Shown here piece by piece: positions 36,341-60,477 of a DNA stretch of 60,477 nucleotides. The notes beneath the pieces are model-generated. The model did not search any database, had not been told where the DNA came from, and saw only the letters and a program-made list of their open reading frames with translations. Source of the DNA: a virus. Lineage: Duplodnaviria; Caudoviricetes. The stretch's first letter is position 1; every line of letters starts with the position of its first letter. The stretch spans positions 1-60,477 of the IMG/VR virus record IMGVR_UViG_3300043407_000092; one strand, written 5' to 3'. The position numbers were made by a program, and so were the translations under genes.

Positions 36341-36455
36341 TGACAGGGCTATACATACACACGTTCTAAAATTCACTGGCTACCCAATCGTTAATGCGTA
36401 CACGCATTGGGGCAAGCATCGAGTACGCGAAACCTTTTCAACCACAAGGAAAATC

Positions 36456-37678: not shown

Positions 37679-37687
37679 AAGACCTAT

Positions 37688-38563: not shown

Positions 38564-38572
38564 GGAAAGGTT

Positions 38573-39121: not shown

Positions 39122-39123
39122 TC

Positions 39124-40385: not shown

Positions 40386-40429
40386 CCAACGGGGCGTAAG
40401 CCCCATTCTTTTCAACCACGGAGATTATT

Positions 40430-42927: not shown

Positions 42928-44879
42928 AACCAATTTATCTGGACTTTGAGACGTATTGGGATACAGCCCATACGCTCTCACGCATGTCCCCAACAGAGTA
43001 CATACAGCACCCTGACACTGAGATCATCTCGGTATCCATCAAGGAAGGCGACGAGCCAACCTATGTGTTGTTTGGCGAGGACAAAATACGCAAGCACATG
43101 CAAGCAATGGACTGGTCTGATGCCATGGCTATCGGTCACAACATGTCAGGCTTTGACTCAATGATTCTTGCTTGGCGGTTAGGGGTAAACCCTAAGATGT
43201 ACGGATGTACAGCAGCAATGGCAAGGTCGCAATACTCTAAGACGTCGGTATTCTTTGGCGGTAAATCCCTTACAGGAGTGTCGTTGAAGAAGCTATCGTA
43301 TGAGTTAGATGTAGGCGCTAAGCTAGACCTCGAAGCTACAAATACTAAGGGTAAACACTTAGTAAACTTTAGCGAAGATGAGATCGCTTCGATGGAAGAG
43401 TACAACAAGATGGACACAGATTTGTGTGCTAAGTTGTTTAAGAAGCTCATCAAAGGATTCCCTAAACAGGAGTTGGTGTTGATAGACATGACTACACGCA
43501 TGCTTGTCGAGCCACAACTGGTACTCAACGCTCCCAAGGTGCAGTTAGCCCTGCGTCAGGTCAAAGAAGAGAAGCGTGAATCGCTCATTAAGCTAGCCCA
43601 TGCGTTAGGTATTGCAACGTTTACGGCTAATACTCTTGAGACAGGTACAAGTGTTGAGGAACAAGTACGAACTGAATTGGCATCAGCCGCTAAGTTTGGT
43701 GCATTGCTGACTAACCTTGGTGTTCCAGTACCCATGAAGGTGTCGCCTACCAACCCAGCCAAGATGACTCCGGCACTGGCGAAGACAGACGAGGCATTCA
43801 TAGCCCTACAAACGCATAAGAACCCCCTTGTAGCCTCCGCAGCTATGGCTAGGCTAGAAGTTAAGTCTACGCTGTTAGAAACGCGCCTAGAGGCTTTCTT
43901 GAAGACGGCAGCCGTATGCAAGGGCAGGATACCTGTGCCACTCAAGTACGCCGGTGCAGACACAACCGGCCGGTGGTCAGGCGAGCAGTACAACATGCAG
44001 AACTTACCTCGCATTGGTGCGTCACCTAAGCCCTCGGATGCCTTGCGTATGTCGTTGCTCGCTCCTCCCGGGCACAAGGTGATCGTATCTGACTTATCCG
44101 GGATTGAGTTGCGTGTGAACATGTTCCTATGGAAAGTCCCTTACGCCATGGAGTTGTTCAAGGCAAGCCCCGACAAGGCAGACTTGTATAGGTACTTTGC
44201 CGCCCATGATCTGTACAACATTGACGAGATACAGGTAACGAAGACTCAGCGTCAGGTAGGTAAGGTTGCTCACCTCGGCTTAGGCTTTGGAGCTGGTGGG
44301 GCTACGTTCCAAAAAGTTGCCAAGTTAATGGGCGGTGTAGACATGAGCCTTGAGGAAGCTACAAAAGTAGTAGATACATATCGTGCAGCACACTCAGAGA
44401 TTAAAGATGGATGGAAAGCGTTTCAGAATAGCCTGACTCACATTAAACAGGGCACAGAGATTCCAATTGACTCTTGGGGTATGTGCATGGTTGAGCAAAA
44501 CGCCATACGTCTGCCCTCGGGTCGTCGCATTTACTATCCTGATCTTAAACAAGAACAAGACAGCAACGGTAAAATTGAATGGTGGTACGGCAATGGGCGT
44601 ACACGAGCCCGCATCTATGCAGGGAAAGGTGTAGAGAACTTAGTTCAAGCCCTTGCACGCGACGTCATTGCAGAGCATGCGGTCAAGTTCTTTAAGGCTA
44701 CTGGTATGCGGCCAGCACTCACGGTGCATGACGAGCTTGTCTATGTAGTTCCAGAAGATTCCGCAGAGGAGCAGTTAGATACATTGCAGACCATAATGCG
44801 TCAAGGCGTGTCATGGTGGCCTGAGTTAATTACATGGTCAGAAGGTGATATTGCAAGCTGTTATGGCGAAGCAAAATAG
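42924..44879 (+). CDS. polA: Family A DNA polymerase with 3'-5' exonuclease
   Basis: ExoI LDFET, ExoII HNMSGFD, ExoIII YNKMD; TGRWS, NMQNLP, motif A DLSGIELR, motif B RQVGKVAHLGLGFG, motif C VHDE. Confidence 0.93.
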   Translation: MKPIYLDFETYWDTAHTLSRMSPTEYIQHPDTEIISVSIKEGDEPTYVLFGEDKIRKHMQAMDWSDAMAIGHNMSGFDSMILAWRLGVNPKMYGCTAAMARSQYSKTSVFFGGKSLTGVSLKKLSYELDVGAKLDLEATNTKGKHLVNFSEDEIASMEEYNKMDTDLCAKLFKKLIKGFPKQELVLIDMTTRMLVEPQLVLNAPKVQLALRQVKEEKRESLIKLAHALGIATFTANTLETGTSVEEQVRTELASAAKFGALLTNLGVPVPMKVSPTNPAKMTPALAKTDEAFIALQTHKNPLVASAAMARLEVKSTLLETRLEAFLKTAAVCKGRIPVPLKYAGADTTGRWSGEQYNMQNLPRIGASPKPSDALRMSLLAPPGHKVIVSDLSGIELRVNMFLWKVPYAMELFKASPDKADLYRYFAAHDLYNIDEIQVTKTQRQVGKVAHLGLGFGAGGATFQKVAKLMGGVDMSLEEATKVVDTYRAAHSEIKDGWKAFQNSLTHIKQGTEIPIDSWGMCMVEQNAIRLPSGRRIYYPDLKQEQDSNGKIEWWYGNGRTRARIYAGKGVENLVQALARDVIAEHAVKFFKATGMRPALTVHDELVYVVPEDSAEEQLDTLQTIMRQGVSWWPELITWSEGDIASCYGEAK

Positions 44880-44977
44880 TGTTGACTAGTCGTAGAAACC
44901 TGCTAAAGTTGTGTCTCACAACCACGGGCCTCCAAGCAACAAATGTCGCTATGGGGGCAAAAACCTATGGAGCAGGC

Positions 44978-45631
44978 ATGGCTAACCCAGCATGGACTTA
45001 TTCGCAGCTGGACACGTTTGAGACGTGCCCGAAGAAGTTCTATCACCTTAAAGTAATTCGCGATACTGTAGACCCCCCGACTGTGTACACCGAATGGGGA
45101 AGCAAAGTACACACAGCATTTGAGAACTTCATTTTGCATGGGGAACTCCTGCCTGACGGCATGACGCAATGGCAACCGCTAGCAGATAAATTAGCCGCTC
45201 TCAAAGGAGCAAAGTTTCCTGAGCGCCAATACGCCGTTGACAAAAACTTTCAGCCATGTGATTGGGACAATGCATGGACACGAGGCATCGCAGACCTTGT
45301 TGTTATTCAAGGTAGTAGTGCAGCTGTCCTAGACTACAAGACAGGCAAACGCAAACCAACCGAGCAGCTTGATTTATACGCCACGTATGTGTTTCATCAT
45401 CACCCCGAAGTTCAGAAAGTAACGACTGGGTTTGTGTGGCTAAAAGAAAAAAAGATTGACTGGCAAGTGCGTGAACGTGATGACCTTGCAACGATATGGC
45501 AGAACCTATTGCCACGAGTACACAAACTTGAATCAGCATATGAGCGTGGCTCATGGCCAGCTAAAACATCAGGGCTGTGCAAAGCTTGGTGTCCTGTAAC
45601 TTCATGCAAGTTCAATGGGAGAAGAACATGA
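44978..45631 (+). CDS. PD-(D/E)xK Cas4-like exonuclease
   Basis: WTYSQLDTFETCP, GIAD, DYKTG, QLDLYA, C-terminal CxxxCxxxxC; GGAG before ATG 44978. Confidence 0.85.
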   Translation: MANPAWTYSQLDTFETCPKKFYHLKVIRDTVDPPTVYTEWGSKVHTAFENFILHGELLPDGMTQWQPLADKLAALKGAKFPERQYAVDKNFQPCDWDNAWTRGIADLVVIQGSSAAVLDYKTGKRKPTEQLDLYATYVFHHHPEVQKVTTGFVWLKEKKIDWQVRERDDLATIWQNLLPRVHKLESAYERGSWPAKTSGLCKAWCPVTSCKFNGRRT

Positions 45632-45939
45632 CTCCCGAAGGCAAGGTCAAAGACGCAGTACGCAAGCTATTAAAAGTACGTACCATTTGGTACTATCAAC
45701 CGATGCAAAACGGTATGGGGCAAGTAGGCATACCAGATTTCATCTGCTGCTGGGATGGAATGTTTTTAGGTATAGAAACTAAAGCTCCCGGCAAACGCAA
45801 AGACACGACAGCTAATCAAGACAGAGTACTAGCCGAGATTGTTAGCCATGGTGGTAAAACAATTGTGGTTGACGACGTAGAACAGTTGCGTAAATTTTTA
45901 GATGACATAGATGGAGATCATGATGGCCACATCAACTAA
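45628..45939 (+). CDS. VRR-NUC nuclease (resolvase-like)
   Basis: TPEGKVK...GIPD...IETKAPG...TANQ. Confidence 0.88.
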   Translation: MTPEGKVKDAVRKLLKVRTIWYYQPMQNGMGQVGIPDFICCWDGMFLGIETKAPGKRKDTTANQDRVLAEIVSHGGKTIVVDDVEQLRKFLDDIDGDHDGHIN

Positions 45940-46189
45940 ACAAAAGCTAGCATACCAAAAAGCATACAACGCTCGCCCCGAAGAAGTAGCCAAGCGTGTA
46001 AAGAATAACGCTGCACGTCGTGACGCAATCAAAGACGGCAGAGCGCGTGTCGGCGATGGCAAAGACGTAGCGCACAAGAAGTCATTAGAGAACGGTGGCG
46101 GCAATGGCAAAGGCAACACCGCTGTGCAAGATCGAGCAACTAACAGAGGATGGAGGAAGGGAAGCGGCTCTTACAACCCTGATAAGTAA
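45923..46189 (+). CDS. HNH-like small protein
   Basis: GDGKDVAHKK...GG.N...NR pattern. Confidence 0.65.
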   Translation: MATSTKQKLAYQKAYNARPEEVAKRVKNNAARRDAIKDGRARVGDGKDVAHKKSLENGGGNGKGNTAVQDRATNRGWRKGSGSYNPDK

Positions 46190-47769
46190 TGCAAATTAAT
46201 AAAGAAAAAAAGGCAGTAATCCTACGCCTAAAAAACCCAAGTCGGGTAACAACAGTTATACCAACAGCTATCGAAGTAGACCACAAAGGACAACGGCTTG
46301 TAGCCGTTCCACACCGCCCCGACGAAACTCGGGTGTTACGCAACTTAGGCTTTGATGTTCCTGACCCAATGCCTATGCACTACGACTGGCCAAAAGCTAG
46401 CGGACGATATTTACCATTTGCAGCGCAGATTGAAACTGCATCTTTCTTATCCATGCACAGTAGGGCGTTTTGCTTGAACGGTATGGGCACTGGTAAGACT
46501 TATAGCGCACTGTGGGCGTATGACTATTTACGTCGTACAAAGCAAGTTAAGAAGATGCTTGTTGTGTGCCCGCTGTCTACAATGGAACGCACATGGGCTG
46601 ACTCTGTATTCAATACATTTCCGCACCTCGATGCAGTTGTGCTACACGGCTCACGCGAGCGTCGGCGAAAGTTATTAGAAGTTGACATTGACCAAGACGT
46701 TCACATCTACATCATCAATATTGACGGCCTTGCCACGATACAACACCAGCTTGCCAAGAGACCCGACATAGATTTAATTGTTGTTGACGAGCTAGCCCTC
46801 GCACGCAACTCAAGTACCGAGCGATGGAAAACATTGAACACGGTATGCAACAAACAAATGTCACGCCGAGTATGGGGTATGACTGGATCACCTACGCCTA
46901 ACGCGCCAACAGATGCATGGGCACAGTGCAAACTAATTACACCCGACAACACCAGCGTACCAAAATACTTTAGTGCGTTTCGTGATCGTGTAATGCGACA
47001 GCTTACACAGTTTAAATGGGCAGCACGACCCGAAGCAAATGATGTAGTGCATCAAATGATGCAGCCTGCAATTAGATTTTCTCTTGACGATTGCACTGAC
47101 TTGCCTGAACAAATATTCATGACTCGCGAAGTTGAAATGACAGTCGAGCAGAAGAAAGCATACAAGGACATGCTGTCCAAGTTAGCAGCCGAGTACGCTG
47201 GCGGACAGATTCTTGCCGTAAACGAAGCTGTAAAAGCAAACAAATTAATTCAAATTGCCTGCGGTGTCGCCTATGGGACAGACGGAACTGAGGTAGTCAT
47301 ACCATCTAAGCCTAGAATGGATGTTCTCAAAGAAATTATTGAAGAATCTGAAGGCAAAGTAATTGTGTTTGTGCCTCTGACTGGCGCTCTTGAACACGTA
47401 GCCGCAGAGCTACGCAAAGACTGGTCTGTGGAAATTGTCCATGGCGAAACCAGTAAAAACGCACGAGATCAGATTTTTTCTAACTTTCAACGAGGGTTAG
47501 ACCCTAGGGTTTTAGTGGCAAATGCAGCTACCATGTCTCATGGTTTAACGCTGACAGCCGCAACGACAATTGTTTGGTACGCACCAGTGCATAGTAATGA
47601 AATCTACGAACAGGCTTGCGCTAGGGTCAGGCGACCCGGCCAAACCAAAACTACTGTGATTGTGCATGTTGCAAGCTCAGACGTCGAACGACGTGTGTAC
47701 AAAAGGTTAGAAGATAAACAATCCATGCAGGGCATATTGCTTGACCTGATGCGAGAACAACCAGAATAG
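46189..47769 (+). CDS. SNF2-family helicase
   Basis: MGTGKT, VVDE, MTGSP, GLTLTAA and QACARVRRPGQ motifs. Confidence 0.9.
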   Translation: MQINKEKKAVILRLKNPSRVTTVIPTAIEVDHKGQRLVAVPHRPDETRVLRNLGFDVPDPMPMHYDWPKASGRYLPFAAQIETASFLSMHSRAFCLNGMGTGKTYSALWAYDYLRRTKQVKKMLVVCPLSTMERTWADSVFNTFPHLDAVVLHGSRERRRKLLEVDIDQDVHIYIINIDGLATIQHQLAKRPDIDLIVVDELALARNSSTERWKTLNTVCNKQMSRRVWGMTGSPTPNAPTDAWAQCKLITPDNTSVPKYFSAFRDRVMRQLTQFKWAARPEANDVVHQMMQPAIRFSLDDCTDLPEQIFMTREVEMTVEQKKAYKDMLSKLAAEYAGGQILAVNEAVKANKLIQIACGVAYGTDGTEVVIPSKPRMDVLKEIIEESEGKVIVFVPLTGALEHVAAELRKDWSVEIVHGETSKNARDQIFSNFQRGLDPRVLVANAATMSHGLTLTAATTIVWYAPVHSNEIYEQACARVRRPGQTKTTVIVHVASSDVERRVYKRLEDKQSMQGILLDLMREQPE

Positions 47770-47826
47770 GAGGCGCTATCGAATACGCAATACATAAACC
47801 ATTCAACCACAAACAAGGATACCTAA

Positions 47827-48210
47827 ATGAAACTCTCAGAAGCTGTCAGCATCTACATAAAGATGCGTGACAAAAAAGCGCAAATGAAAGCAGAGTTTGA
47901 TGCAAGCGTTGCTCCTCTCAACGAGAAGATGGAAAAGCTAGAAGCCAAGCTACTAGACGTTTTCAACAAGACTGGCATTGATTCTGTAAAGACGGAATTT
48001 GGAACAGCGTATACCACAAATCGCGTAACTGCTAGCGTGGCCGATCGGGAAATTTTCATGAACCACATCAAAGAAAATGACGATTGGGGTCTTTTAGAAG
48101 TACGTGCCTCCAAAACAGCGGTAGAACAATACCGCGAAACCAATGACGACTTACCCCCGGGTATATCTATCCGTGAAGAACGTGTAGTAAATGTTCGCCG
48201 TTCGTCGTAA
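47827..48210 (+). CDS. Conserved coiled-coil replication-module protein
   Basis: YIKMRD...SVKTEFGTAY...LPPG pattern, typically found upstream of the SSB. Confidence 0.7.
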   Translation: MKLSEAVSIYIKMRDKKAQMKAEFDASVAPLNEKMEKLEAKLLDVFNKTGIDSVKTEFGTAYTTNRVTASVADREIFMNHIKENDDWGLLEVRASKTAVEQYRETNDDLPPGISIREERVVNVRRSS

Positions 48211-48237
48211 ACTCTCTCCCCCAACCACTGAAAAATT

Positions 48238-49131
48238 ATGAACATCATTCCATTTGACTCCGGCTCCAACCTGCCATCATTCTTGAAAAAGGTTGACATC
48301 GCAGCCCTGAACTCTGACTTGACTGCACATGCAGGCGGTGGGTTTCCGGTGATTTCTATCAAGGGTAAAGTCTTTGCAGTTGTACGCGATGGCGAACGTG
48401 AACTGCAGATGAATCCAAAAGACCCTGACAGCGCGGCTACTAGCTTGAACGTAGTGTTGCTAAAAGCCAACAAGGGCACAAGCAAAGTGTTTTACCTCAA
48501 GGGCTACGACAAAGACACAAGCGAAGGTCAGAAGCCTGACTGCTACTCAAGCGATGGCATTGAGCCGGCAGCAGATGCACAGAACAAGCAGGCTAAGAAG
48601 TGCGCAACCTGTGCTCACAACCAATGGGGCTCTCGCATCAGCGAGCGTGGTGCAACCAAGGGTAAGGCTTGCTCTGACACCGTTCGCATGGCCGTAGCGC
48701 CAGCCGGTCAGATTAATGACGCAATGCTGTTGCGTGTACCTCCTGCTTCTATCAAGGCGCTTGGTGAGTACGGTCAGATGTTGGCTAAGCGCGGTGTAGG
48801 CTACAACATGGTTGTTACCAAGGTAGGCTTTGACTTGCAAGCAGAATCGCCCAAGTTGACATTCAGCCCTGTTGGTTTGCTAGACGACGAAGGCTTTGCT
48901 GAAGTCCAAGAGATAGCTAAATCAGATGTTGTTGCAACAATCTTAGGCGCTAACCCAGTCGCAGTAGAGTTTGTCGCAGAAGCAATTGAAACACCTCCAG
49001 TTGTAGAAACTAAGGCAGCAGCTCCTGAGCCAAAGCCTGAAGCCAAAGCTAAACCAGCCGCCAAAGCCAAACCCGCCCCCGTTGAAGAAGAGCTAGAGCT
49101 CGACCTCGATGGCATAAGTTTTGACGACTAA
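48238..49131 (+). CDS. Putative single-stranded DNA-binding protein
   Basis: ISIKGKVF, PDCYS, CATC..NQWGS, GKAC, acidic C-terminus ending FDD. Confidence 0.7.
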   Translation: MNIIPFDSGSNLPSFLKKVDIAALNSDLTAHAGGGFPVISIKGKVFAVVRDGERELQMNPKDPDSAATSLNVVLLKANKGTSKVFYLKGYDKDTSEGQKPDCYSSDGIEPAADAQNKQAKKCATCAHNQWGSRISERGATKGKACSDTVRMAVAPAGQINDAMLLRVPPASIKALGEYGQMLAKRGVGYNMVVTKVGFDLQAESPKLTFSPVGLLDDEGFAEVQEIAKSDVVATILGANPVAVEFVAEAIETPPVVETKAAAPEPKPEAKAKPAAKAKPAPVEEELELDLDGISFDD

Positions 49132-49149
49132 ATAGCTCCACCCCCAAGG

Positions 49150-49170
49150 AAGCCCCTTCGGGGGCTTTTT
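49150..49170 (+). terminator. Intrinsic terminator after the SSB gene
   Basis: aagcccc-ttcg-ggggctttt. Confidence 0.8.
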
Positions 49171-49221
49171 CCGCTTTACTGGAGTATTTATGATGCAAAA
49201 AAACAACAACCGGAGATAGCT

Positions 49222-52200
49222 ATGGATGCTCTTGAGTTTCTCCGCACAATTTTGCCCGAGCATGGCATACATTACTTGACGCTTTTTACCAAAGAGCTCA
49301 ACCCCAAAACAAACAAGCCGTATACCTATCACAAGCACTATTTAAGCTTGGAAGATATGGCGGACGCAATTCCATACTGGGAAAACAACCCCAAGTTTGT
49401 GGCAACCTACCATGCATGTGCGTCGTATCTAAAGCCATACATTGAAGTTGAGAAAAACGGAGAGACCCGCAAGAAATACCGCGTTGAAGAGAACTGGGAT
49501 CGTGCCAAGTCTTTTTGGATTGACATTGATTGCGGTCAGAAGAAACACGATGCAGGTCAAGGCTATCTTACAAAGACAGACGGCGTTGTAGCCATTGCAA
49601 CATTTGCCAAGAGGGTAGGCTTACCCCGCCCTATGATTGTGGACTCAGGTAACGGTATCCATGCTTACTGGCCACTGACTAAAGACATCAGCCACACCAA
49701 ATGGATTACGGTTGCCAAGTGGTTAAAGTCTTGCCTAGCGCACGAGAGTGTCTTAGCAGATTCGTCACGCACTGCTGACTTTGCAAGTATCTTGCGTCCT
49801 GTCGGATCGGCTAATCGTAAGGGTGATGCCAAAGACGTTAAGGTTAAAGCAGCGTGCGAGCCTATCGAGCCCGAGGCATTTGCACTAGCACTTCAAACAT
49901 TTGTATCTGACAACAACGTCAAGCTCATCAAAGAATCCGTTAAGAAGGCGTACAACACTGACTTAAACTCTGACTTAACTTGTCACCTTACACAGTACCC
50001 TGATGTACCTGTAGATGCTAACGAGCTGGCCAGTAAATGCCTTCAGGCAGGTGCGATGCGAGATTCTAAGGGTGATGTAGGGTATGAGCCTTGGCGCGGC
50101 GTTATCGGCCTTTTAAAGCACTGCGAAGATGGCGAGAAGTTCTCTGAGGAGTGGAGCGCTGACCGAGAAGCAACAGGCCACGACCAACTAGATTGGCAGA
50201 ACAAATACAACACATGGGAAGCCGGCCCTACAACCTGCGCATTTTTTGAGCAACACAACAGCGCCGGCTGTGTAGGCTGTGAGTTCAAAGGCAAGATTAA
50301 TACACCACTAGTCCTTGGTAGGGTAATCCCTATAGTCGAAGAATCTACCGCTGAGATCGTTACGGACGAAGGCGTTGTTGAGGAAGCTGCTGTACCTGCT
50401 TTGCCTTACGGATACATGTGGGATGGTAAATTGCTTAGCCGCTTGCTCCCGGATAAGGAGGGCGTGTTACAGCCATTGTCTTTCTGTGAGAACTTGTTTT
50501 ACCCAACAAGCCGTATCCGCAGTGAAGATGGCACGTTTAAATACGGTATTCGGTTTCATCTACCCGACAAACGCATTCGGGATTTTGATATCTTAGGCGA
50601 GTCAGTGGCATCATCCACCGATTTGTTACGCGCACTAGCGCGGTACGAACTGACAAAGAGTAACCACAAAAATGCAGGGGATCACATGTCTGCTTATTTG
50701 CTAGACCAATTGCAGGCGCTCAAGCGAAGAATCACTGAGACAAATACGTTGACAGCGTTTGGTTGGCGTGATGAACACAAAGCCTTTTTGCTTGGTGACA
50801 AGCTGTACACCAAGGGTGCAGAACCTAGCGAAGTTTTGATTGGCGGCAATGCCAAAGAACGTGCTAGTACGTTTACGTCTAACAAAGGCTCACTGGAAGG
50901 CTACGCTGAAGCCCTTAACTTCTTGTACAACCGAGAGGGTGCTGTTCACTGGCAGTACACCATCTGTGCGGGCTGGGGTTCTTTACTGGCGCACCACTGC
51001 GAGGACTTATACAAAGGACTTATCTTGGCACTACAGGGCGGTGATACGGCTCGAGGTAAGACAACAGTCTGCCATGCGGCGCTTGCTGCTTTTGGTAACC
51101 CTGCCAAGCTAACCTTAAACTCTAAAGACGGCTTTACGACAAACGCTTTGTGGGCGACCCTTGGCGTGTTTAACAACATACCTGTGTTGGTGGATGAACT
51201 TACTGGTATAGACCCTGCAACTTTTAGTGATGTAGCGTATGGCGTATCGAATGGCCAAGACAAAATTCGCATGACTTCCAAAGGTGGCAATGTAGTTTTT
51301 GCCAAGTCATCTGAATGGCGTCTTAATGTTTACATTACCGGCAATAAAGACTTCCACGGGCTACTTGCTGCTAATCAAGCTAATTCCCAAGCGGAAGCTG
51401 TTCGTTTAATCCAAGTCAACATTGATCGCTATCAACCCCTTGTACTAACTGATCGCGCTAAATATCCTACGGGTAAAGACGGTGACGACGCTTGGAACGC
51501 AGCATCAGCTATTGTGGCAGCAGAGCATATTAAACAGATGACGCAGAACAGTGGTCATGCGGGTGCAGCCATTATTAAGTACATGTTAGAGAACGAAGCG
51601 TCGGTAGCCAAAGCTATGGAGGACATGCTGACACGCTTTACTAAACTGTTGCCAAGTCCCAAGTATCGTTTTTACCGTGCTCACAGTGCATGCACCATGG
51701 TTGTTGCTCAGATAGCAAAGAAGTTGGGCATCATTCAATTTGATCTGCAAGAACTGTATGCATTTACAGGTACTCTAATCACTGAACTTGCCGACTCTGT
51801 GATGGAAACAAATGCCATATCGTCTGACGATGCGTTTTCACGCATGATTAGTCACCTCAATCCAAGAATTGTTGTCACTAGCGAGTACCGTGATAAGCGC
51901 GATGGCAGGGGCCCCGAGACGCCACGCAACCGTGTGTTTGGGGATGTAGCAGGTCGTTTTGTGCTCGGCACTCTTAACCATAAAGAACATGCTGGGCATT
52001 TGATGTTGTCGCAGAAAGAAGTACGCGACTGGTGCATGAAGAACCGTATTGACTTCCATGCCATGCTAAGCAGCTTACAGCAGGAGGGCGCACTACTGAA
52101 GCAGGGTGAGAAGTTTACGTTGACTCGAGGAACCGATTACCCAGTCATTCAGCAACGCTGTATCTTTGTAGATACAAACAAGCTAGACAAGGATGCAGTA

Positions 52201-52260
52201 GCCCCTGCGCTAACATTGGTTTCAAATCAATTTGACGGCGAGGCCGTAGGAGATGTATGA
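49222..52260 (+). CDS. Primase-helicase (AEP/RepB-type primase, PriCT-2, DUF927 helicase)
   Basis: WIDID, VDSGNGIHAYW, ILRPVGS, Cys cluster, FGW, ARGKTT, LVDE. Confidence 0.88.
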   Translation: MDALEFLRTILPEHGIHYLTLFTKELNPKTNKPYTYHKHYLSLEDMADAIPYWENNPKFVATYHACASYLKPYIEVEKNGETRKKYRVEENWDRAKSFWIDIDCGQKKHDAGQGYLTKTDGVVAIATFAKRVGLPRPMIVDSGNGIHAYWPLTKDISHTKWITVAKWLKSCLAHESVLADSSRTADFASILRPVGSANRKGDAKDVKVKAACEPIEPEAFALALQTFVSDNNVKLIKESVKKAYNTDLNSDLTCHLTQYPDVPVDANELASKCLQAGAMRDSKGDVGYEPWRGVIGLLKHCEDGEKFSEEWSADREATGHDQLDWQNKYNTWEAGPTTCAFFEQHNSAGCVGCEFKGKINTPLVLGRVIPIVEESTAEIVTDEGVVEEAAVPALPYGYMWDGKLLSRLLPDKEGVLQPLSFCENLFYPTSRIRSEDGTFKYGIRFHLPDKRIRDFDILGESVASSTDLLRALARYELTKSNHKNAGDHMSAYLLDQLQALKRRITETNTLTAFGWRDEHKAFLLGDKLYTKGAEPSEVLIGGNAKERASTFTSNKGSLEGYAEALNFLYNREGAVHWQYTICAGWGSLLAHHCEDLYKGLILALQGGDTARGKTTVCHAALAAFGNPAKLTLNSKDGFTTNALWATLGVFNNIPVLVDELTGIDPATFSDVAYGVSNGQDKIRMTSKGGNVVFAKSSEWRLNVYITGNKDFHGLLAANQANSQAEAVRLIQVNIDRYQPLVLTDRAKYPTGKDGDDAWNAASAIVAAEHIKQMTQNSGHAGAAIIKYMLENEASVAKAMEDMLTRFTKLLPSPKYRFYRAHSACTMVVAQIAKKLGIIQFDLQELYAFTGTLITELADSVMETNAISSDDAFSRMISHLNPRIVVTSEYRDKRDGRGPETPRNRVFGDVAGRFVLGTLNHKEHAGHLMLSQKEVRDWCMKNRIDFHAMLSSLQQEGALLKQGEKFTLTRGTDYPVIQQRCIFVDTNKLDKDAVAPALTLVSNQFDGEAVGDV

Positions 52261-52261
52261 T
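52232..52261 (+). promoter_or_regulatory. Sigma70-like promoter TTGACG-N18-TATGAT overlapping the primase stop
   Basis: TTGACG at 52232-52237 and TATGAT at 52256-52261. Confidence 0.65.
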
Positions 52262-52267
52262 TGCCCT

Positions 52268-52340
52268 GCTGGTTGCCATGACTAGCTCCTTTTCGTGGTT
52301 GAAAAGACCAACCCCCGGCGTAAAAACCGGGGGTTTTTTT
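52268..52340 (+). ncRNA. Candidate trans-acting anti-RBS small RNA
   Basis: ORF-free on the plus strand between a promoter and a terminator; contains CUCCUUUUCGUGGUUGAAAAGA, complementary to several early-gene leaders. Confidence 0.6.
52310..52340 (+). terminator. Intrinsic terminator
   Basis: aacccccgg-cgtaaaaa-ccggggg-ttttttt. Confidence 0.88.
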
Positions 52341-52406
52341 GTTGTCATAAATTTATACTACGATGTGTTTGCAGCCGCTGTGGTTGCACTAACCTAGGGG
52401 CACATC

Positions 52407-52637
52407 ATGAAATTTGAAATGGATTTTGGCGTTTATGGCAACAGCAAATTAATTATCGAGACTCACGATTTTGACGTGATTGATATCTTTCAAAAGTTTG
52501 TAGAGTTTCAAGACCACTACGGTTGGGCTGTTGAGTACGAAGCCACGGCTGTGCTTGGCGATGAGCTTGAAGATGACACCGACGAAGAGTTAGATGGCGC
52601 TGAGACTGAAGCTGCAGCAGAGGCCGCTAAAGAGTAA
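52407..52637 (+). CDS. Small acidic protein
   Basis: 76 aa with a strongly acidic C-terminus. Confidence 0.7.
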   Translation: MKFEMDFGVYGNSKLIIETHDFDVIDIFQKFVEFQDHYGWAVEYEATAVLGDELEDDTDEELDGAETEAAAEAAKE

Positions 52638-52660
52638 ATGTATACACACTGTGTATACAC

Positions 52661-53041
52661 TCAGGGGGCTTCGGCCCCTTTTTTCTTTTTGGCTTTTTTA
52701 GCCATACGTTCATCGTGGTGATGTATGCGGTGGCAGTTGGCGCAGAGCACAACGCACTTCTTGACTTCTTCCATGGCACGTTTAAATGCGCGATTTTTAA
52801 TTAGCTTGTTGACAGACTCTTCTTTAGTACTGCTATCTACGTGGTGAAAGTCAAAGGTAGCCGGATGATTCTGTCCGCACTGCACACACGATAATGTAGC
52901 TTTAAAGCTACGCCACTGATCTTTGTATGCCTTGGCCGATGCCCTACTGGCGGCAATTACAATTTCTTTATTGTTGGCGTAGTACGTACTTGCGTACGTT
53001 TTTTGTTTAGTTTGCTTAACAATTTTATCTTTATACGGCAT
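52661..53041 (-). CDS. HNH endonuclease
   Basis: CVQCG...FDFHH...CVVLCANCHRIHH; likely start MPYKD at 53041. Confidence 0.85.
   Translation of the reverse strand: MPYKDKIVKQTKQKTYASTYYANNKEIVIAASRASAKAYKDQWRSFKATLSCVQCGQNHPATFDFHHVDSSTKEESVNKLIKNRAFKRAMEEVKKCVVLCANCHRIHHHDERMAKKAKKKKGAEAP
52663..52690 (+). terminator. Intrinsic terminator at the convergence point of the two arms
   Basis: ggggc-ttcg-gcccc followed by a T tract. Confidence 0.75.
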
Positions 53042-53471
53042 GTTTGATTCGGTACTTCCAGTACAGCGCCGTTTTGAAACCCCAAGGTTGAGATGGCTCA
53101 AACATTTTGAAACCTACAGCTATCAAACTGTTAGCAGATGCAGGGTTTTGGTGGGTATCAGAGATGACCCAATTCATGCCTAATCTCTTGGCCACTTTAA
53201 TACGCTGTCGGATAAGCCGCTTCTGGAGTCCCTGTCCTTGATGAGCTCGTGTAATGCCTGAGCGACATAAGTACATAGTGTCAGACCAACGAGTAGAGGG
53301 GACAATACCACCAAAGCCAACGGCTTCACCGTCTTGCGAGTAAACAACATGCCAGTATCCTTGAGTAATTGGGTAAACTTTGTCTGCAGGAAGACACGCT
53401 TTCTGCAACCAAACGAGTAGTTGTACCACCTCAGGCTGGCGAGTATCGACAGGGACAACGCGGTAGTTCAT
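53031..53471 (-). CDS. GNAT acetyltransferase
   Basis: HQGQGLQKRLI (acetyl-CoA motif A), NPASANSLIAVGF. Confidence 0.88.
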   Translation of the reverse strand: MNYRVVPVDTRQPEVVQLLVWLQKACLPADKVYPITQGYWHVVYSQDGEAVGFGGIVPSTRWSDTMYLCRSGITRAHQGQGLQKRLIRQRIKVAKRLGMNWVISDTHQNPASANSLIAVGFKMFEPSQPWGFKTALYWKYRIKHAV

Positions 53472-54352: not shown

Positions 54353-57300
54353 TTAATCTCCTGCGATTTCTTCAGCTAGTTTACGGGTTCCTTTGGTGTA
54401 CTGCACACCGCCAACCGTCATACGCTCGCGTTTAGCTTGCTCTTGCGGTGCTTTTAGTAAGTCAGAAAACGGCTGCAACTTAAGACCATTTTCTTGTCGA
54501 GCTTTTTGAAGTTTCGTCCACGCCTCACGAGCTGACTGTTTAGCAGCAGCATCGTTGTTCTTAACAGCCTTAACATAGTCGTTTTTAACACGAGTCGTGC
54601 GCTCTTGGAAGTTTTCAGTAACATCACGCATGCGATTTTGTCGCTCATAAGTTACAGTTTCTTTAACAGACGGAACACCAAGACCGGTCAAAATGGCAGA
54701 AATTGCACTAATCTCTTCTGCGGGTAACACTACATCACCGTTACGGCGAGTCATACCTTCAGCAGCTTGGCGTCCAGCTTTGAGCGCGTCGGATACACCC
54801 TTGGGCATAGTGCGCTCAATACCTTTGTAGTAATCGCCACTGAGAATCAACCCCATGCCATCGGCTACACGAGATACCATACCTAACGATGCGCCCCCTA
54901 CTAGAGTGCCAAATGCTTCTGCACGGCCAGCCGTTGTGCTGAGATCGGCGTCACTAAATGGCATGATAGAAAGCATATTGCCGGAGCCAATCTTACCTGA
55001 CAGATCAACGCCTACTAATGTAGGAGCGCCGCGCATAATAAGATCAGACCACTCAGGACCAAGAGCCTTCCGCATATCTGCTGTCAAATCATAAGGGTCG
55101 TCTTCGTCACTGAACGCTTTAAGTAGAAAAGCAACAGCCGCATAACCAGGCAATCCCATCATGCCAGCAAAAACTGCGGAATGACCTAATGAAAAAGCCA
55201 GTGTGCGCATGGCAGCAGCCCGCTCGGCGGGATTTGTAAACGCATCGCGCAACAGTTTGGCGTAGAACGCAATCTGAATTAATTGGAACTTGCGGAACTG
55301 CAGTGCAACCTTACCCCACTGGCTGTTAAAAACGCGAGGTGCATTCATAGCAGTGTAGTCACCATGGGTATCAGTCAGGATATCAGCAGCGTACTGCGTA
55401 GCCTTTTCAGCATCCTTAGTTCGTGCAAACTCCAAACGGTATGCAGCAATGGCCGTAGACAGACGATTGGTAGCTTCCACTTTCTGGACAGCCAGTCGCA
55501 TGCTCTTGTTTAAACGTTGTGCAAACTTACCTAGCTTGCTATCAGCATCAACCTTGTACTCGTTAATTTCAGTGGCTAAGCCAATGTCAATCTGCCCTTG
55601 GTTAACGAGTTTGGTAATTGCTGCGCGTACATCAGCAGGAACTTTTGAAAAGTCAAACTGTTGGTCAAACAACTTAATGTCTTTAAACAGTGGGCCAAGT
55701 TCAGCGTACGCATCAAACAAAGCTTTGCCTGCCTTAGTGTAGTCATGGCGGCCAGCCAGTGCAGGCAGAGACATCATGAATGGCTGTGTCAAATTCTGCA
55801 TGTAATACGCAGGACTAGAAGCCAAGAAGTACTTAGAAGCCGTGTTAGTCAGGCCAGTAATAAAACCATTGCCCTTGGTTTCTAAAGACTCCACATAACG
55901 CTTGGTTAGTTCGTCAAAGATTTCTGATTTGCGTTCGCGGTTTCCGCCTCGGCGATCATTACGCATTTGCTGCAATGCATCTTGGATCAACGGCTCAAAC
56001 TCTACGTTAGCAAGGAAGTTGGCATCAGCGCGACCCTGACGAGTAAACGACTGCAGCATATCCACTTCACCAGCTACCCCACGACGACGCATCTCAGACT
56101 TGCGAGCACTACCCTCTGCCAACGCCTCCAAGTACAACTGGTTAACGATGTTTAACAGCTTGCTGCGACTAGAATCATCGCGTTTGTCAACCGCAGCACG
56201 AATTTTGGTCAACGCTGGCAAAAGCGCCTCACCGCTAAAGGCTTCTTCAAATGCCGTAGCTCGCTTAACAATATCTGGCTTGGTAAATACACCTTGGTCA
56301 GTTAGGTTGTCGCTAAGGGTACGTGCCGCCCACTTGGTATCAACAAAGCTAACATGGTAGTGGTCTGGGTCGGACTCAAGTTGTTTGATACGTTTTGTAT
56401 CTTTAGCAATTTCGGCAGCTTTGTACTCTGCAGATTTACCAATGACAACGTACGCACCGTCACGCTTAATAGGTGCATAGGGTTTACCCTCACGAATAGC
56501 AAACAATGTTTGGAATCGTTTAAGCGTGGCAACTTTTTCAGCTTTAAGCGCTGCTAGTTCCCCTTCAGCTTTTTGTTTTTCCTTGGCATCTGTTGCCGTG
56601 TTAACCATGTTCTGAGCTGCCTGAATCATGGCATCGTACTCAGAGTTTGCAGACTTCAAGACACTTTGTTTCTTTTGAGACAAAATCTTGTCACCATGAG
56701 CAAACACGTTCTTAACAAACTTTTGAGCTTTGGGGCCTAGCTTGTCAAATGCATCACCCATTTTGTCATCGCGGTACTTGCCGTAACCCCACTTCAGAGT
56801 ACGAGTAGACTCAAACAAGAAGTCGTTAACACTACCGCGGCCAGCACCCTTGAACTCTGGTTCAATATCAGCGTAGCCATCTGCAATGCTTTCAATTTCA
56901 CGTTCAAACTCACTGACACGCGCTCTGCGTTGCGACAAAGCATCGGCAAAACTTTGAGCAGAAGTTAGCCCAGCGTCTACGGCACGTTTAATTAAGTCGC
57001 TTGTAAATACAACGTAGTCTAGGCCAGCGCCTGTTACGTCACCTAAAGCAAGAACAATATTGCGTACAGGAGACCGAGAAGCTTTAGGCAGCTTGGCAAT
57101 GTTGTTTTGGATTACCCCTTGGCTCGGCCTTGCCATTCTTAAAATTGCTGGCTGAAACGCCGTCGCCGACACTAAATCAATCTTTGCGCCGTCCCAATTG
57201 CGCCGTGCACGCTCCAAAGCGTGGCTGACATTTAAACCGCGCATACCATCTGTAAAAGGCGCATCGCCCGGGAATGTTACCTTGACGGTAATTTCTTTTT

Positions 57301-60300
57301 TGTACTTTGATTCTTCGTAGGATTTGGGGGCTTTCCCCATGCCCATTAACGAGTCTGGGGCGTTTCCATACGGAACGGCTGAAGTGATCCTTTGGGTTCC
57401 ACGATAGGCTTGAACTTGCGAGGATTCTGCTGTAGTTGCTGCGCCCGTTTGAGCATCTGCGCCACCTTTGTTTTGTTTTGCGGTTTCATCACTAGCCTCC
57501 ATAAAATCATAAGTAGCCGGTAGGTTATCTGCCAAATAGGCATTGCCTTCACGGGTGTTGTAAAAAGCCCAAAGCTGCGCAAAGACTTCCATGCGAGTCT
57601 CGTCAGCACTCATATTCTTAGTGTCGTTTCGGCTGTGGTCGAGAGGGTAGCCCATAGACCTTGTAAAGTCTGAATCTGGATTTTCAGCCATGTGAGTCAT
57701 AATTTCAGACACCACAGAACCCATAGGTTTAACAACACCTTTTTGAATAGTCAGATTAAACTCAGGCAGGCCAGAAAAAATACCACCTGTTGTAAACGCA
57801 GCATCTGCAATGTGGCCCAGCTCGTGATGAATAGCCCAGTTAGCTGCATCAGAATTAACCAGCATGCCAGAACGTACTGCCAAAGTCTGTTTACCGTCCA
57901 CCATCATAATGGCAGCGTCAAAGTCAACAGTGTCTGGGGCAACCATCCACAACTCAACGTCATCAATTACTTGACGAAGATCGTTATTTTCATAATGACT
58001 TAGCGCACTTTCAACGCCGGGAAATCTGCGCAGGCTAGCCTCGTCAGTAATTTGGCCATCAAACTTTAATGTTCCGGCAGTAACTTCAACCGTGTCGCCT
58101 TTAGTAAGACGTAAAACGCGGTTAACCGCTACATCAATAGTTTCTTCTTTACCCACTACATCAGCAGCTGCAACGCCTTTAGCGCCTTGGCCATCTTCAG
58201 TACGGGTCTCTGTGCGGGTCTCGGCAGCAAACATCTGAGCTGCTTGTTCTTGTGCATCAGGCACGACAAAAACCATACCGCCATCAAGATTGGCAATGTT
58301 GGGAGCAATCTCGTTAATAAAGGTGTCATGCTTGGTATTGATACAGCCATAGCTAACACGGTTGTCTGCTGCTGTAGGAGTATCTAATCGACCTAAACGA
58401 TTCTCAGACGGTGTGCTAGTGTCTGCAGCGTGGATGGCAATGTAGCCCGTGTAGTCTTTAGACTCAACCAAGATTAACTCTTGGCCACCAGCGTACGTAG
58501 ATGGTCTAGCTTTAAGAGTAAATTTACCAGCAGGGGTAACTTTTGCGCCGCCTTCCAAAGAAGACACAGCTTCCATCACGTCACCAGTATCTTTGCCGTA
58601 CAGCGTAGGGTCAGACAAAGCGTGTGAGCCATCTTCTTTAAAGATATGCAGCATGCCGTTTGGCTTGTCGGCAACCATAAACCATTTACCAGACTTCATT
58701 GCCACAGGAGCCATGGCTTCATACACGCTTTGAGCAGTCGGTGACATTTGAGCTTTAGCTACAGCAGGTACGGCTTGCGTTACTTCAATGGTCTGTTCAA
58801 ATGTTTTAGCAACGTTAAGAGCAAACGCATCTTTGGTAATGTTCGGGTTGAACACAATACCCATGGCAAGTACGCCTTCGGCCATTGATTTGATGATGCT
58901 ACGAATAGCACCTGCAACAGCTTCTGCACCTTGAGTAACATACTTGGTAATGTCCTCTTGTACTTTGCGTAAGAACTCAGCGCTGTCACGCTTCTCACCA
59001 TAGTGCTTTTCAAGACGATCAATCTGAGGCGCTGGTAGCGCGGCAACCTGTTGGGTAACCTGCTCATCAATGATGCGAGTTTCACCTTCAATGGTGACTG
59101 GCTCTTTAGTCAGCAACTGCTGCAAGCCCATCTCTTTGGCAACTGAGGGTTTACCATTAGTACGGACAGCTAAGTCAGTCAGGTAACCTTGCTCAAGCTT
59201 GTTTAACTGCTCGTACGGAACTAAGCCGGGTGTCTTAGCAGAAAGGTTTTCCCACAGGGCTTTGCCTCTATCTATTTGCTCTTCGGCTTGGCCTTGGGTT
59301 TGACCTTTGCTGGCAGGTTTTTCGGCACGCCGTACTTGGCCGCCCACTCTTTTGCCACCTTTGGTTTCTGACTGAACAGGTACGAGCGCTGTGCTTGTGA
59401 CTTGAACGGCATTTGTTTTCTCCAGTTTAGCCATCTGGACAGACAGCTCTTTTGTTTGACCGCTTTGAAAATCTACGGTTACGGTAGTTGCATCTCCGTC
59501 GCCAGAAAAACTTCTAACAATCCCAGTACCCAACTTGGGGTTTACTACAGTGTCGCCAACTTCAAAACCTTTGCGGTCAGCAGCGCGTTTAGCAGCGGCC
59601 TTAGCACGAAGTTTTTCAGCTTCAGCTTTTTTGGCGTCATCAGCATTGTTAACAGAAATTGATTCTGGCTCGGCCTCTTTAGCTGCTGCAACTAAATCAA
59701 CTTCACCATCCGTGTCTCCCAAACCAGCAGTTTCTTTAACTGCTGCTTGAGCGCGTTTTTCAACGGCGCGAACTTTGACAAGTTGTTCTGCCAATTTAGC
59801 ATTGAGCTCTTTTAGTTTGGCTTCATCAGTCTCAGCAGCCAAGGCTTCTAGTGTGGCATCAATTTCTTTTTGGAGCTTAGTAAAGCCTTCAACTTCAGAA
59901 GTACCAGCACCAGCAGTGTTTACAATATTTTCTAAGCCGCCCTCAATAGCTTCACTTTCACTAATTGCTGACGGTTGATTTTGCCCAAAAATCTCACGCT
60001 CAACGGCTGAACCTGTTACATCTTGTTCAAGTGGCGTAAATGCGTTTTTAATCTGCTCATCTGTTAGACCCAATTCGGTTCTGGCTTGCGCAACGCGAGC
60101 GGCACGAGCTTCAGCACCTGTAGCCCCTGCAATCTTCTGTATGGAAGAGCGAGTCAAACCATACTTGGCAGCAGCATTAGGCTCAGACATACCCATGCCA
60201 ATAACATCAAAGATAATATCGCCGTTGCGCTCACCAAAAATACGTTGTAACAAAACTTGACGTTCGTCCACAACAGGTGGATTACTGCGTTTAGTCTGTT

Positions 60301-60477
60301 CATCCTGCAACAACTTATATTCAGCGTCGCTAATGTTGATGTTTGTTAATTCGGCAGTTAGTTGGTCGTCAGACAATTTACTGACAACATCAGGCGTAAC
60401 TTCTCCGCGAGCTAAAACGGCTGGTTGTCGCGTTGTTTGCGGTCTTTGCGTTTCTGTTTGCTGGGCTTGAGCGGCTT
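54353..60477 (-). CDS. C-terminal part of giant polyvalent protein (HTH-like, Tudor, L,D-transpeptidase-like, zincin and PLxRFG domains)
   Basis: 2007-aa track ORF whose frame stays open through the junction to ATG 1931. Motifs: GDTVVNPKLGTG, IAIH...SYGCIN, HELGH, PYAPIKRDG. Confidence 0.9.
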   Translation of the reverse strand, partial: AAQAQQTETQRPQTTRQPAVLARGEVTPDVVSKLSDDQLTAELTNINISDAEYKLLQDEQTKRSNPPVVDERQVLLQRIFGERNGDIIFDVIGMGMSEPNAAAKYGLTRSSIQKIAGATGAEARAARVAQARTELGLTDEQIKNAFTPLEQDVTGSAVEREIFGQNQPSAISESEAIEGGLENIVNTAGAGTSEVEGFTKLQKEIDATLEALAAETDEAKLKELNAKLAEQLVKVRAVEKRAQAAVKETAGLGDTDGEVDLVAAAKEAEPESISVNNADDAKKAEAEKLRAKAAAKRAADRKGFEVGDTVVNPKLGTGIVRSFSGDGDATTVTVDFQSGQTKELSVQMAKLEKTNAVQVTSTALVPVQSETKGGKRVGGQVRRAEKPASKGQTQGQAEEQIDRGKALWENLSAKTPGLVPYEQLNKLEQGYLTDLAVRTNGKPSVAKEMGLQQLLTKEPVTIEGETRIIDEQVTQQVAALPAPQIDRLEKHYGEKRDSAEFLRKVQEDITKYVTQGAEAVAGAIRSIIKSMAEGVLAMGIVFNPNITKDAFALNVAKTFEQTIEVTQAVPAVAKAQMSPTAQSVYEAMAPVAMKSGKWFMVADKPNGMLHIFKEDGSHALSDPTLYGKDTGDVMEAVSSLEGGAKVTPAGKFTLKARPSTYAGGQELILVESKDYTGYIAIHAADTSTPSENRLGRLDTPTAADNRVSYGCINTKHDTFINEIAPNIANLDGGMVFVVPDAQEQAAQMFAAETRTETRTEDGQGAKGVAAADVVGKEETIDVAVNRVLRLTKGDTVEVTAGTLKFDGQITDEASLRRFPGVESALSHYENNDLRQVIDDVELWMVAPDTVDFDAAIMMVDGKQTLAVRSGMLVNSDAANWAIHHELGHIADAAFTTGGIFSGLPEFNLTIQKGVVKPMGSVVSEIMTHMAENPDSDFTRSMGYPLDHSRNDTKNMSADETRMEVFAQLWAFYNTREGNAYLADNLPATYDFMEASDETAKQNKGGADAQTGAATTAESSQVQAYRGTQRITSAVPYGNAPDSLMGMGKAPKSYEESKYKKEITVKVTFPGDAPFTDGMRGLNVSHALERARRNWDGAKIDLVSATAFQPAILRMARPSQGVIQNNIAKLPKASRSPVRNIVLALGDVTGAGLDYVVFTSDLIKRAVDAGLTSAQSFADALSQRRARVSEFEREIESIADGYADIEPEFKGAGRGSVNDFLFESTRTLKWGYGKYRDDKMGDAFDKLGPKAQKFVKNVFAHGDKILSQKKQSVLKSANSEYDAMIQAAQNMVNTATDAKEKQKAEGELAALKAEKVATLKRFQTLFAIREGKPYAPIKRDGAYVVIGKSAEYKAAEIAKDTKRIKQLESDPDHYHVSFVDTKWAARTLSDNLTDQGVFTKPDIVKRATAFEEAFSGEALLPALTKIRAAVDKRDDSSRSKLLNIVNQLYLEALAEGSARKSEMRRRGVAGEVDMLQSFTRQGRADANFLANVEFEPLIQDALQQMRNDRRGGNRERKSEIFDELTKRYVESLETKGNGFITGLTNTASKYFLASSPAYYMQNLTQPFMMSLPALAGRHDYTKAGKALFDAYAELGPLFKDIKLFDQQFDFSKVPADVRAAITKLVNQGQIDIGLATEINEYKVDADSKLGKFAQRLNKSMRLAVQKVEATNRLSTAIAAYRLEFARTKDAEKATQYAADILTDTHGDYTAMNAPRVFNSQWGKVALQFRKFQLIQIAFYAKLLRDAFTNPAERAAAMRTLAFSLGHSAVFAGMMGLPGYAAVAFLLKAFSDEDDPYDLTADMRKALGPEWSDLIMRGAPTLVGVDLSGKIGSGNMLSIMPFSDADLSTTAGRAEAFGTLVGGASLGMVSRVADGMGLILSGDYYKGIERTMPKGVSDALKAGRQAAEGMTRRNGDVVLPAEEISAISAILTGLGVPSVKETVTYERQNRMRDVTENFQERTTRVKNDYVKAVKNNDAAAKQSAREAWTKLQKARQENGLKLQPFSDLLKAPQEQAKRERMTVGGVQYTKGTRKLAEEIAGD
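57346..57489 (-). CDS. Nested +1-frame small protein C (47 aa, MKPQNKTKVAQMLKRAQQLQQNPRKFKP...)
   Basis: GGAGG (57496-57500) lies 6 nt before ATG 57489, right after the zincin domain. Confidence 0.55.
   Translation of the reverse strand: MKPQNKTKVAQMLKRAQQLQQNPRKFKPIVEPKGSLQPFRMETPQTR
59272..59412 (-). CDS. Nested +1-frame small basic protein B (46 aa, MPFKSQAQRSYLFSQKPKVAKEWAAKYG...)
   Basis: GGAG (59420-59423) lies 7 nt before ATG 59412. The sequence resembles free-standing small phage proteins beginning MPFKS.AQR..L...P.VAK.W. Confidence 0.75.
   Translation of the reverse strand: MPFKSQAQRSYLFSQKPKVAKEWAAKYGVPKNLPAKVKPKAKPKSK
60351..60477. repeat. 127-bp terminal overlap (copy of 1-127)
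   Basis: Exact identity with the window start. Confidence 0.95.

Follow-up and report, generated by a model that had tools for sequence, protein, structure and literature searches.

The question addressed here is what lies directly 3' of the primase-helicase stop codon (TGA, 52258-52260) in IMG/VR virus record IMGVR_UViG_3300043407_000092 (Caudoviricetes), and what it does. The window analysed is this complete viral record of 60,477 base pairs (bp), which has direct terminal repeats. Judging from sequence comparison, a conserved plus-strand RNA gene very probably exists at the locus. By the same comparison, and by analogy with known antisense RNAs, this gene would encode a trans-acting small RNA (sRNA) that represses several of the phage's own early genes by pairing with their ribosome binding sites (RBSs), a reading to which a probability of about 0.6 is given. 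The comparison of relatives shows a predicted promoter, a structured plus-strand RNA, an anti-Shine-Dalgarno (anti-SD) motif, a terminator, and pairing potential with start sites of the phage itself that shifts in step with them. The significance of the locus rests on these comparative data and not on the window alone.

The primase used as a query retrieved 12 related loci in IMG/VR, and a profile of its C-terminal 299 residues retrieved 60 loci (42 to 99% identity). Fifty-three of the 60 were examined together with the window, giving 54 sequences, 50 of them unique; left out were six near-duplicates of represented contigs (L043, L044, L047, L048, L049, and L072) and the truncated locus L098. 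The analysis also drew on ten more family genomes that CheckV estimates to be complete or almost so (95 to 100%). Gene starts were called by a simple heuristic developed for this purpose, and duplex energies were computed without accessibility terms. No relative was found among GenBank phage records, either by primase-region DNA or by the primase C-terminal protein.

Predicted promoter, RNA body, and terminator

The sequence-only reading had described a promoter-like site, a unit of about 75 nucleotides (nt), and a terminator, all of which were confirmed. The -35 box TTGACG (52232-52237, plus strand) lies within the last primase codons, and the -10 box TATGAT (52256-52261, plus strand) overlaps the primase stop codon. 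With their 18-nt spacing (52232-52261), the boxes match 10 of 12 consensus positions. Promoter-like sites within 2.5 kb are not above chance, with one found and 3.5 in shuffled sequences. All 50 unique sequences have a -10 box that overlaps the stop codon of the primase gene; in 49 of them it matches TATAAT at five of six positions, and none has lost A2 or T6. Its variants are TATGAT (44 sequences), CATAAT (3), TATAGT (2), and CATGAT (1), and the box survives three different stop codons. The last sense codon of the primase ends in A in all 50 unique relatives; A occupies the third position in 22% of the codons of the window primase, and GTA accounts for 33% of its valine codons. A -35 box with at least four of six matches to TTGACA is located exactly 18 nt from the -10 box in 40 of the 50, and the peptide encoded there varies (QFDG, RLDG, EVDR, VVDD, and others). 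Both boxes are conserved beyond coding constraint and form a predicted promoter.

The predicted sRNA of about 75 nt (52268-52342, plus strand) would start 7 nt past the -10 box and end at the T-run; predicted lengths in relatives are 55 to 77 nt (median, 71). Its end is an intrinsic terminator (52310-52342, plus strand) with a GC-rich stem of 9 to 10 bp (52310-52335) followed by T7, and a terminator with a T-run is present in all 54 sequences examined. Close relatives are nearly identical over 39 nt (52268-52306) but differ from one another at third codon positions in the 3' end of the primase gene, in the 7-nt linker between stop codon and hairpin, and in the few nucleotides preceding the terminator. 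Run X2 contained one contig joining position 51926 to 52310, thereby skipping the primase 3' end and the RNA body (51927-52309) and keeping the terminator. It may stem from a relative whose sequence ends differently or be an artefact of assembly.

These boundaries bear on the possibility that the element acts in cis only, as the 3' untranslated end of a long early mRNA that folds back onto internal ribosome sites with no separate RNA. The element directly follows the last early gene on the same strand, with no terminator between them, and the candidate targets are upstream on that strand. The icaR mRNA also provides a documented precedent for a 3' untranslated region (3'UTR) whose anti-SD motif pairs with the Shine-Dalgarno (SD) sequence of its own mRNA. 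However, the conservation of the -10 and -35 boxes exceeds coding needs, and conservation starts exactly at the predicted +1, after the freely varying linker. An exclusively cis-acting element is considered unlikely, and such action could coexist with the trans-acting form.

Three hairpins make up the predicted fold of the window RNA (-31.1 kcal/mol; z = -3.95). The 5' hairpin, H1 (52268-52286, plus strand), exposes a GCCAU loop with an anticodon-like CAU complementary to start-codon regions. According to single-sequence folds, a hairpin starts about 7 nt 3' of the -10 box in roughly 46 of 50 relatives, which fits a primary transcript opening with a protective 5' hairpin. H1 is followed by the anti-SD motif CUCCUU (52286-52291, plus strand; CTCC or TTCC after H1), with CUCC or UUCC at this place in 49 of 50 unique relatives and TCCTT in 40. 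The seed and a weak hairpin, H2 (CUUUUCG/UGAAAAG), occupy 52289-52307 (plus strand) and include a 14-mer complementary to 40407-40420. H2 is clade specific and has no single register across clades, and hence no covariation is claimed for it; one clade preserves it through paired 1-nt deletions.

A covariance model, R1, was built from 29 well-aligned sequences. It matched 45 of the 50 sources at E ≤ 0.01, always on the plus strand and always directly after the primase stop codon, and found one such copy per genome in eight of 10 additional whole records. On the model-fitted alignment, all five modelled H1 pairs change on both sides, with 96.2% of cells paired; none of 500 shuffles was as good, and slid controls dropped to 32 to 67% paired. 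When the sequences were folded without alignment, G-U pairs made up 68 of the 365 hairpin pairs; these become A-C mismatches on the minus strand, and H1 is more stable on the plus strand than its complement in 40 of the 50 sequences and less stable in nine. The G-U pairs and the greater plus-strand stability indicate that the structured molecule is the plus-strand RNA. The conserved promoter, the covariation in H1, and G-U pairs possible only on the plus strand all argue for the discrete plus-strand RNA gene that had been proposed.

The same locus had been offered an alternative explanation as the leader of an antisense open reading frame (ORF) of 44 amino acids (aa), and this ORF does exist (52145-52279, minus strand). 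It is not a conserved gene: minus-strand ORF length ranges from 0 to 72 aa across the 50 relatives, with five codons in one full-genome relative, and no SD sequence with a start codon was found in six of the 50. On the plus strand, an ORF starting at the ATGA overlap ranges from 0 to 125 aa and is absent where the primase stop codon is TAA or TAG. A small protein-coding gene on either strand was rejected, as neither the presence nor the length of an ORF is conserved in these relatives. The comparisons identify the 44-aa ORF as a by-product of a predicted RNA that mirrors a start site.

A function of the minus strand could also take the form of a ribosome site with a short ORF, or of a decoy ribosome site on late transcripts reading through the locus. 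An SD sequence, a 6-nt spacer, and ATG are present on this strand in 37 of 50 relatives, and several relatives have a terminator without a minus-strand T-run, from which late read-through appears possible. Nevertheless, the erratic ORF length, the conversion of hairpin G-U pairs to A-C mismatches, and the location of both promoter and T-run on the plus strand make such a function extremely unlikely.

Complementarity to early start sites

The RNA string quoted in the sequence-only reading is located at 52271-52307, and all matches listed for it are present. The exact 14-mer occurs at 40407-40420 (plus strand) and 52294-52307 (minus strand). Allowing up to three mismatches, the 14-mer family has 11 matches, compared with 6.6 expected, and three of 100 shuffles reach 11, a weak enrichment. 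The exact 9-mer TTCAACCAC occurs five times, compared with 0.46 expected. Four of the five directly precede an SD sequence with a start codon; three of these are just upstream of plus-strand start codons, and the fourth belongs to the mirror image within the candidate RNA. The RNA had been said to mirror the 40407 leader with the same spacing. This holds for GAG-N6-ATGGC but not for the distance from the 14-mer to GAG, where the mirror image in the RNA has five extra nucleotides (AAAAG).

In the duplex scan, the first 49 nt of the RNA were folded against genome windows of 75 nt on both strands (8017 windows; mean, -23.1 kcal/mol; standard deviation, 4.7 kcal/mol). The leader, SD sequence, and start of a 222-aa gene (start, 40430; site, 40407-40435, plus strand) gave -43.1 kcal/mol, the best of the 8017 windows, and this start site ranks first of 115 for duplex formation with the RNA, consistent with the earlier choice of the 40407 leader as the main target. 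The second predicted target is the start site of the PD-(D/E)XK exonuclease (PF12705; start, 44978; site, 44953-44991, plus strand), with -39.5 kcal/mol (0.22% quantile). The predicted exonuclease duplex uses the whole RNA length and involves, on the mRNA side, the G-run of the leader, the SD sequence, AUG, and codons 2 to 5. The third site belongs to a 332-aa ATPase (phrog_1297; start, 36456; site, 36434-36458, plus strand; -35.5 kcal/mol, 1.1% quantile) and combines a 12-nt contiguous complement, CTTTTCAACCAC, from 36434 with a following AAGGA. The fourth, at the start of a 127-aa Gam/Sipho_Gp157-like gene (start, 47827; site, 47802-47829, plus strand; -26.2 kcal/mol, 25% quantile), consists of TTCAACCAC from 47802 and then AAGGA (9 plus 5 nt). 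The start site of a 291-aa gene (37688) gave -30.5 kcal/mol (6.9% quantile). Several early genes are thus candidate targets, as had been suggested, although that suggestion missed the exonuclease start and listed the 127-aa gene only as a short 9/9 match.

The leader at 40407 is preceded by a GC-rich terminator-like stem, GGGGCGTAAGCCCC (40390-40403), and that at 36434 by a GCGTAC...GTACGC stem (36398-36432). Hairpins before leaders bearing TTCAACCAC suggest that the targeted genes may open new translational or processing units within the operon.

Throughout the family, the RNA of each genome has its best partners among one set of orthologous genes, although the pairing sequences differ. The start site of the 127-aa gene, the most consistently co-varying partner across clades, is complementary through 15 nt (AACCACAAAGGAACC), 11 nt (AGGAGCTAACA), 11 nt (CAAGGAAACAA), and 9 nt (ACTCAAGGA) in four clades, and predicted duplexes with this gene reach 27 to 32 pairs, four to five of them G-U, in one clade. 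For 24 unique pairs (from 32) of this leader and RNA, the summed longest complement was 210 for cognate RNAs, versus 161 expected from non-cognate ones, and the summed energy was -529 versus -394 kcal/mol, with none of 20,000 permutations as extreme; L166 and L167 were left out of this permutation test because their start codons could not be settled. With one representative per RNA type (10 types), the values were 93 and 61.8, and none of 50,000 permutations was as extreme. By longest complement, the cognate RNA came first, ties included, for seven of the 10 leaders.

The effect was smaller for the exonuclease site (-747 kcal/mol for cognate versus -690 kcal/mol for non-cognate RNAs; P = 0.00035; 21 unique pairs). 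This site ranks 1/111, 1/110, 2/115, 2/96, 4/92, and 6/92 in six genomes when the full-length RNA is used. In a cleaner test of a single position, a variable base of the H1 loop (C or U in UUGNCAUG) forms a Watson-Crick pair with the first base of exonuclease codon 2 (+4; GCA or ACA) in 13 of 13 unique pairs, comprising three U:A and 10 C:G combinations, with both states found inside two separate clades. G10, G11 (L202), and G13, whose loops lack the TG[CT]CAT motif and have no evident complement to the exonuclease start, were left out of this test. The starts of the exonuclease and the 127-aa gene are the most widely conserved predicted partners. Compensatory changes between seed and leader in related phages had been named as a check, and co-variation of RNA and start site was found in the 127-aa gene and exonuclease tests, among sequences that are related. 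The comparative evidence in this way supports the earlier proposal that the RNA mirrors translation-initiation regions.

R1 also gave a weak second match (22.4 bits) on the minus strand of G007 (16096-16165), antisense to the leader and start of the exonuclease gene, and the same match was obtained in L142/L143 (2930-2999) and in L192/L197. In the G007 clade, the RNA and the exonuclease start site mirror each other almost completely over some 55 nt, a hint that inverted duplication of a start site gave rise to the RNA gene.

These results bear on two further explanations. The first is that the locus is only a stability or termination structure at the 3' end of the primase mRNA, with leader complementarity arising incidentally from A/C-rich leaders and SD sequences. 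The hairpins do directly precede a terminator, and the promoter-like match is not above chance in the window. However, the anti-SD motif, the conservation of the promoter, the top genome-wide duplex rank, and the cognate-specific co-variation would be left unexplained, and this reading is judged highly improbable. The second is that host mRNAs are the main targets, the RNA being a general anti-SD shut-off of the host or a specific regulator of a host gene, with matches to phage leaders secondary. The anti-SD motif is generic, there is a weak architectural likeness to Burkholderia anti-hemB (23.7 bits) and to a Betaproteobacteria toxic sRNA (18.1 bits), and a lambda sRNA is reported to act on host genes. 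Both Rfam scores are, however, far below the gathering thresholds, and the extended clade-specific complementarity and the co-variation are with the phage's own start sites, which renders action mainly on the host very unlikely.

Proposed action of the RNA

The preferred explanation is a trans-acting repressor of the phage's own genes. A sigma-70-type promoter, with its -10 box built into the primase stop codon, would produce a discrete RNA of about 75 nt. This RNA would act in trans by pairing over the leader, SD sequence, and start codon of early replication and recombination mRNAs. In the window, the mRNAs concerned would be those of the 222-aa gene (40430), the exonuclease (44978), the ATPase (36456), and, more weakly, the Gam-like gene (47827). 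First contact may be made through the hairpin loop carrying the anti-AUG and through the seed. By analogy with RBS-occluding antisense RNAs, ribosome binding would then be occluded, reducing translation and possibly exposing the mRNA to decay. The RNA gene closes the replication module and is carried on a template that replicates, which makes a feedback or temporal shut-off of this module plausible. Repression itself, a switch from early to late expression, and a role in immunity had all been suggested for the RNA and stand as inferences.

Since the gene lies on the replicating template, RNA dose should rise with genome copy number. A bolder and rather doubtful extension is that a constitutive RNA from every genome copy acts as a dose-counting governor that gauges copy number and shuts down exonuclease, Gam-like, ATPase, and 222-aa functions after sufficient replication. 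It might also set RNA-based incompatibility (heteroimmunity) groups, because seeds and target sites have diverged together between clades. If this were true, silencing of early genes by a resident or co-infecting phage would be confined to relatives with the same seed.

Several observations weigh against the trans-acting repressor and are considered together here. Recognition of the boxes by a sigma-70-type factor is an assumption. RNAalifold on a plain MAFFT alignment of the 50 sequences recovered only four terminator pairs and missed H1, because differences in loop length misalign this hairpin; the covariance model was therefore built from 29 sequences instead. The H1 covariation comes from a model-fitted alignment, which is biased toward structure, but the stems can be recognized in the raw sequences as well. 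Much of the window seed is folded into H2. Among the predicted targets, the Gam-like site is weak in the window (25% quantile), and the primase start site (49222), for which partial pairing had been claimed, gave -21.1 kcal/mol, a background value at the 64th percentile of the windows scanned. In G4, G10, G11, and G13, the exonuclease site has a low rank (14/117, 9/103, 52/97, and 25/113, respectively). A seed-only energy matrix of 11 RNAs and 11 genomes is noisy and favors cognate pairs only in part, the cognate genome not being the best for the RNAs of G8, G9, G10, and G13. The permutation P values overstate the number of independent events because the sequences are related.

Finally, run X1, a freshwater metatranscriptome in which 8% of the sampled words were present, was scanned over 44000-53000 and yielded five contigs of 152 to 266 nt (45142-45407, 48097-48264, 48352-48501, 48888-49139, and 51973-52186). 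None covers 52268-52342, although such contigs show neither ends nor strand and are evidence in neither direction. Runs X6 and X7 gave nothing.

Genome context and relation to known systems

The early block is on the plus strand (approximately 32318-52637), and the remainder of the genome is on the minus strand. In addition to the ATPase, the exonuclease, the Gam/Sipho_Gp157-like protein, and the primase-helicase (1012 aa; DUF927), the early block encodes a DUF2201 metallopeptidase/VWA protein, a family-A DNA polymerase, and an SNF2 helicase. The 332-aa ATPase and the DUF2201 metallopeptidase/VWA protein are close together (36456-40230), an arrangement of the MoxR/VWA-like kind. The 222-aa protein and a 173-aa protein had no match in PDB, NCBIfam, Pfam, or PHROG, and no SSB, the leader of which had also been proposed to pair with the RNA, was identified. 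Ten small early ORFs had no Pfam match, and neither a repressor nor an integrase was seen in a scan that covered part of the genome. At approximately 33227-33460, ATTATCCA is present in three tandem copies upstream of 33297, and the palindrome AATTATCCAGCTTGGATAATT spans the start at 33450; these elements may serve the early region as an operator or as iterons.

In most relatives, the RNA terminator is adjoined by a minus-strand gene for a small Lys/Cys-rich protein. The window carries extra inserted genes in its place (52343-53471), namely, a 76-aa acidic ORF (52407-52637) with its own terminator (52663-52680), a 146-aa Cys/His-rich ORF (52661-53101), and a GNAT acetyltransferase (53031-53471). 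A minus-strand ORF is open at both ends of the window (54353-60475 and 3-1931) and probably represents one giant gene of at least approximately 2,600 aa that crosses the terminal repeat junction. A 60,447-bp contig (L216; JBIKJV010000379.1) with a primase C terminus 84% identical to that of the window was binned into a Phycisphaerales metagenome-assembled genome. Its size suggests an entire phage genome of the family and not a prophage, and Phycisphaerales is not taken as the host.

Occlusion of an RBS by an antisense sRNA is well known as a mechanism, whereas the present family has no counterpart in Rfam, and the search of GenBank phages returned nothing similar. No Rfam family reached its gathering score over the whole window, and full-text literature searches turned up no description of this RNA family. 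The closest Rfam scores, to RF02837 (anti-hemB; 23.7 bits versus a threshold of 49.5) and RF02278 (Betaproteobacteria toxic sRNA; 18.1 bits versus a threshold of 50), reflect likeness of architecture without membership, with hairpins, a CU-rich anti-SD motif, and a terminator shared with both. No c4-like model, of the kind that Rfam includes, was among the Rfam matches at the locus up to E = 10.

The c4 RNA arises by processing within the operon of its only target (icd/ant), upstream of that target, and has its role in lysogenic immunity. Unlike c4, the present RNA has its own predicted promoter, is located at the end of a replication module, has several predicted targets, and lies downstream of them. 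As described in a review, the c4 antisense RNA of P1 and P7 is phage encoded and structured and pairs around the RBS of its own mRNA, thereby blocking translation. Both c4 and the predicted RNA are structured phage RNAs of about 75 nt that are not transcribed opposite their targets; like c4, the predicted RNA would pair around RBSs through exposed sequences. Known phage sRNAs that regulate genes of the same phage in trans are few, and the review names essentially c4 of P1 and P7.

In Staphylococcus aureus, the 3'UTR of the icaR mRNA pairs with the SD sequence in its 5'UTR, which blocks initiation and makes an RNase III substrate. A pyrimidine-rich anti-SD motif following a coding region and complementarity to an SD sequence are shared with the present element, whereas icaR is one monocistronic mRNA and the element described here has a conserved dedicated promoter and several predicted targets 4 to 16 kb upstream. 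The lambda sRNA PreS/LPR1 is reported to be a phage-encoded base-pairing RNA of the lytic cycle that is linked to replication, targets host genes, and enhances dnaN translation. In the present case, repression is predicted, and the predicted targets belong to the phage itself.

Comparison can be extended to two classical systems of dose or shut-off control. Copy-number control RNAs of plasmids, such as CopA of R1, are constitutive hairpin-loop antisense RNAs whose dose follows copy number and which block translation of a replication function; they are cis encoded, fully complementary, and directed at a single target, whereas the present RNA would be trans encoded, with interrupted pairing and several target genes. 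RegA of T4 is a protein that binds the initiation regions of many early mRNAs and thereby stops their translation, whereas the repressor proposed here would be an RNA, with its specificity in base pairs. The natural co-variation between clades offers ready seed and compensatory variants for reporter tests, and it suggests that uncultured phages may commonly turn off replication and recombination genes at the RNA level, a task that falls to a protein in T4. Compared with all of these systems, the distinctive features are a predicted promoter fused to a stop codon, an RNA that mirrors an entire initiation region and presents the anti-AUG in a hairpin loop, several predicted targets belonging to the replication and recombination module of the same phage, and clade-specific co-variation with them.

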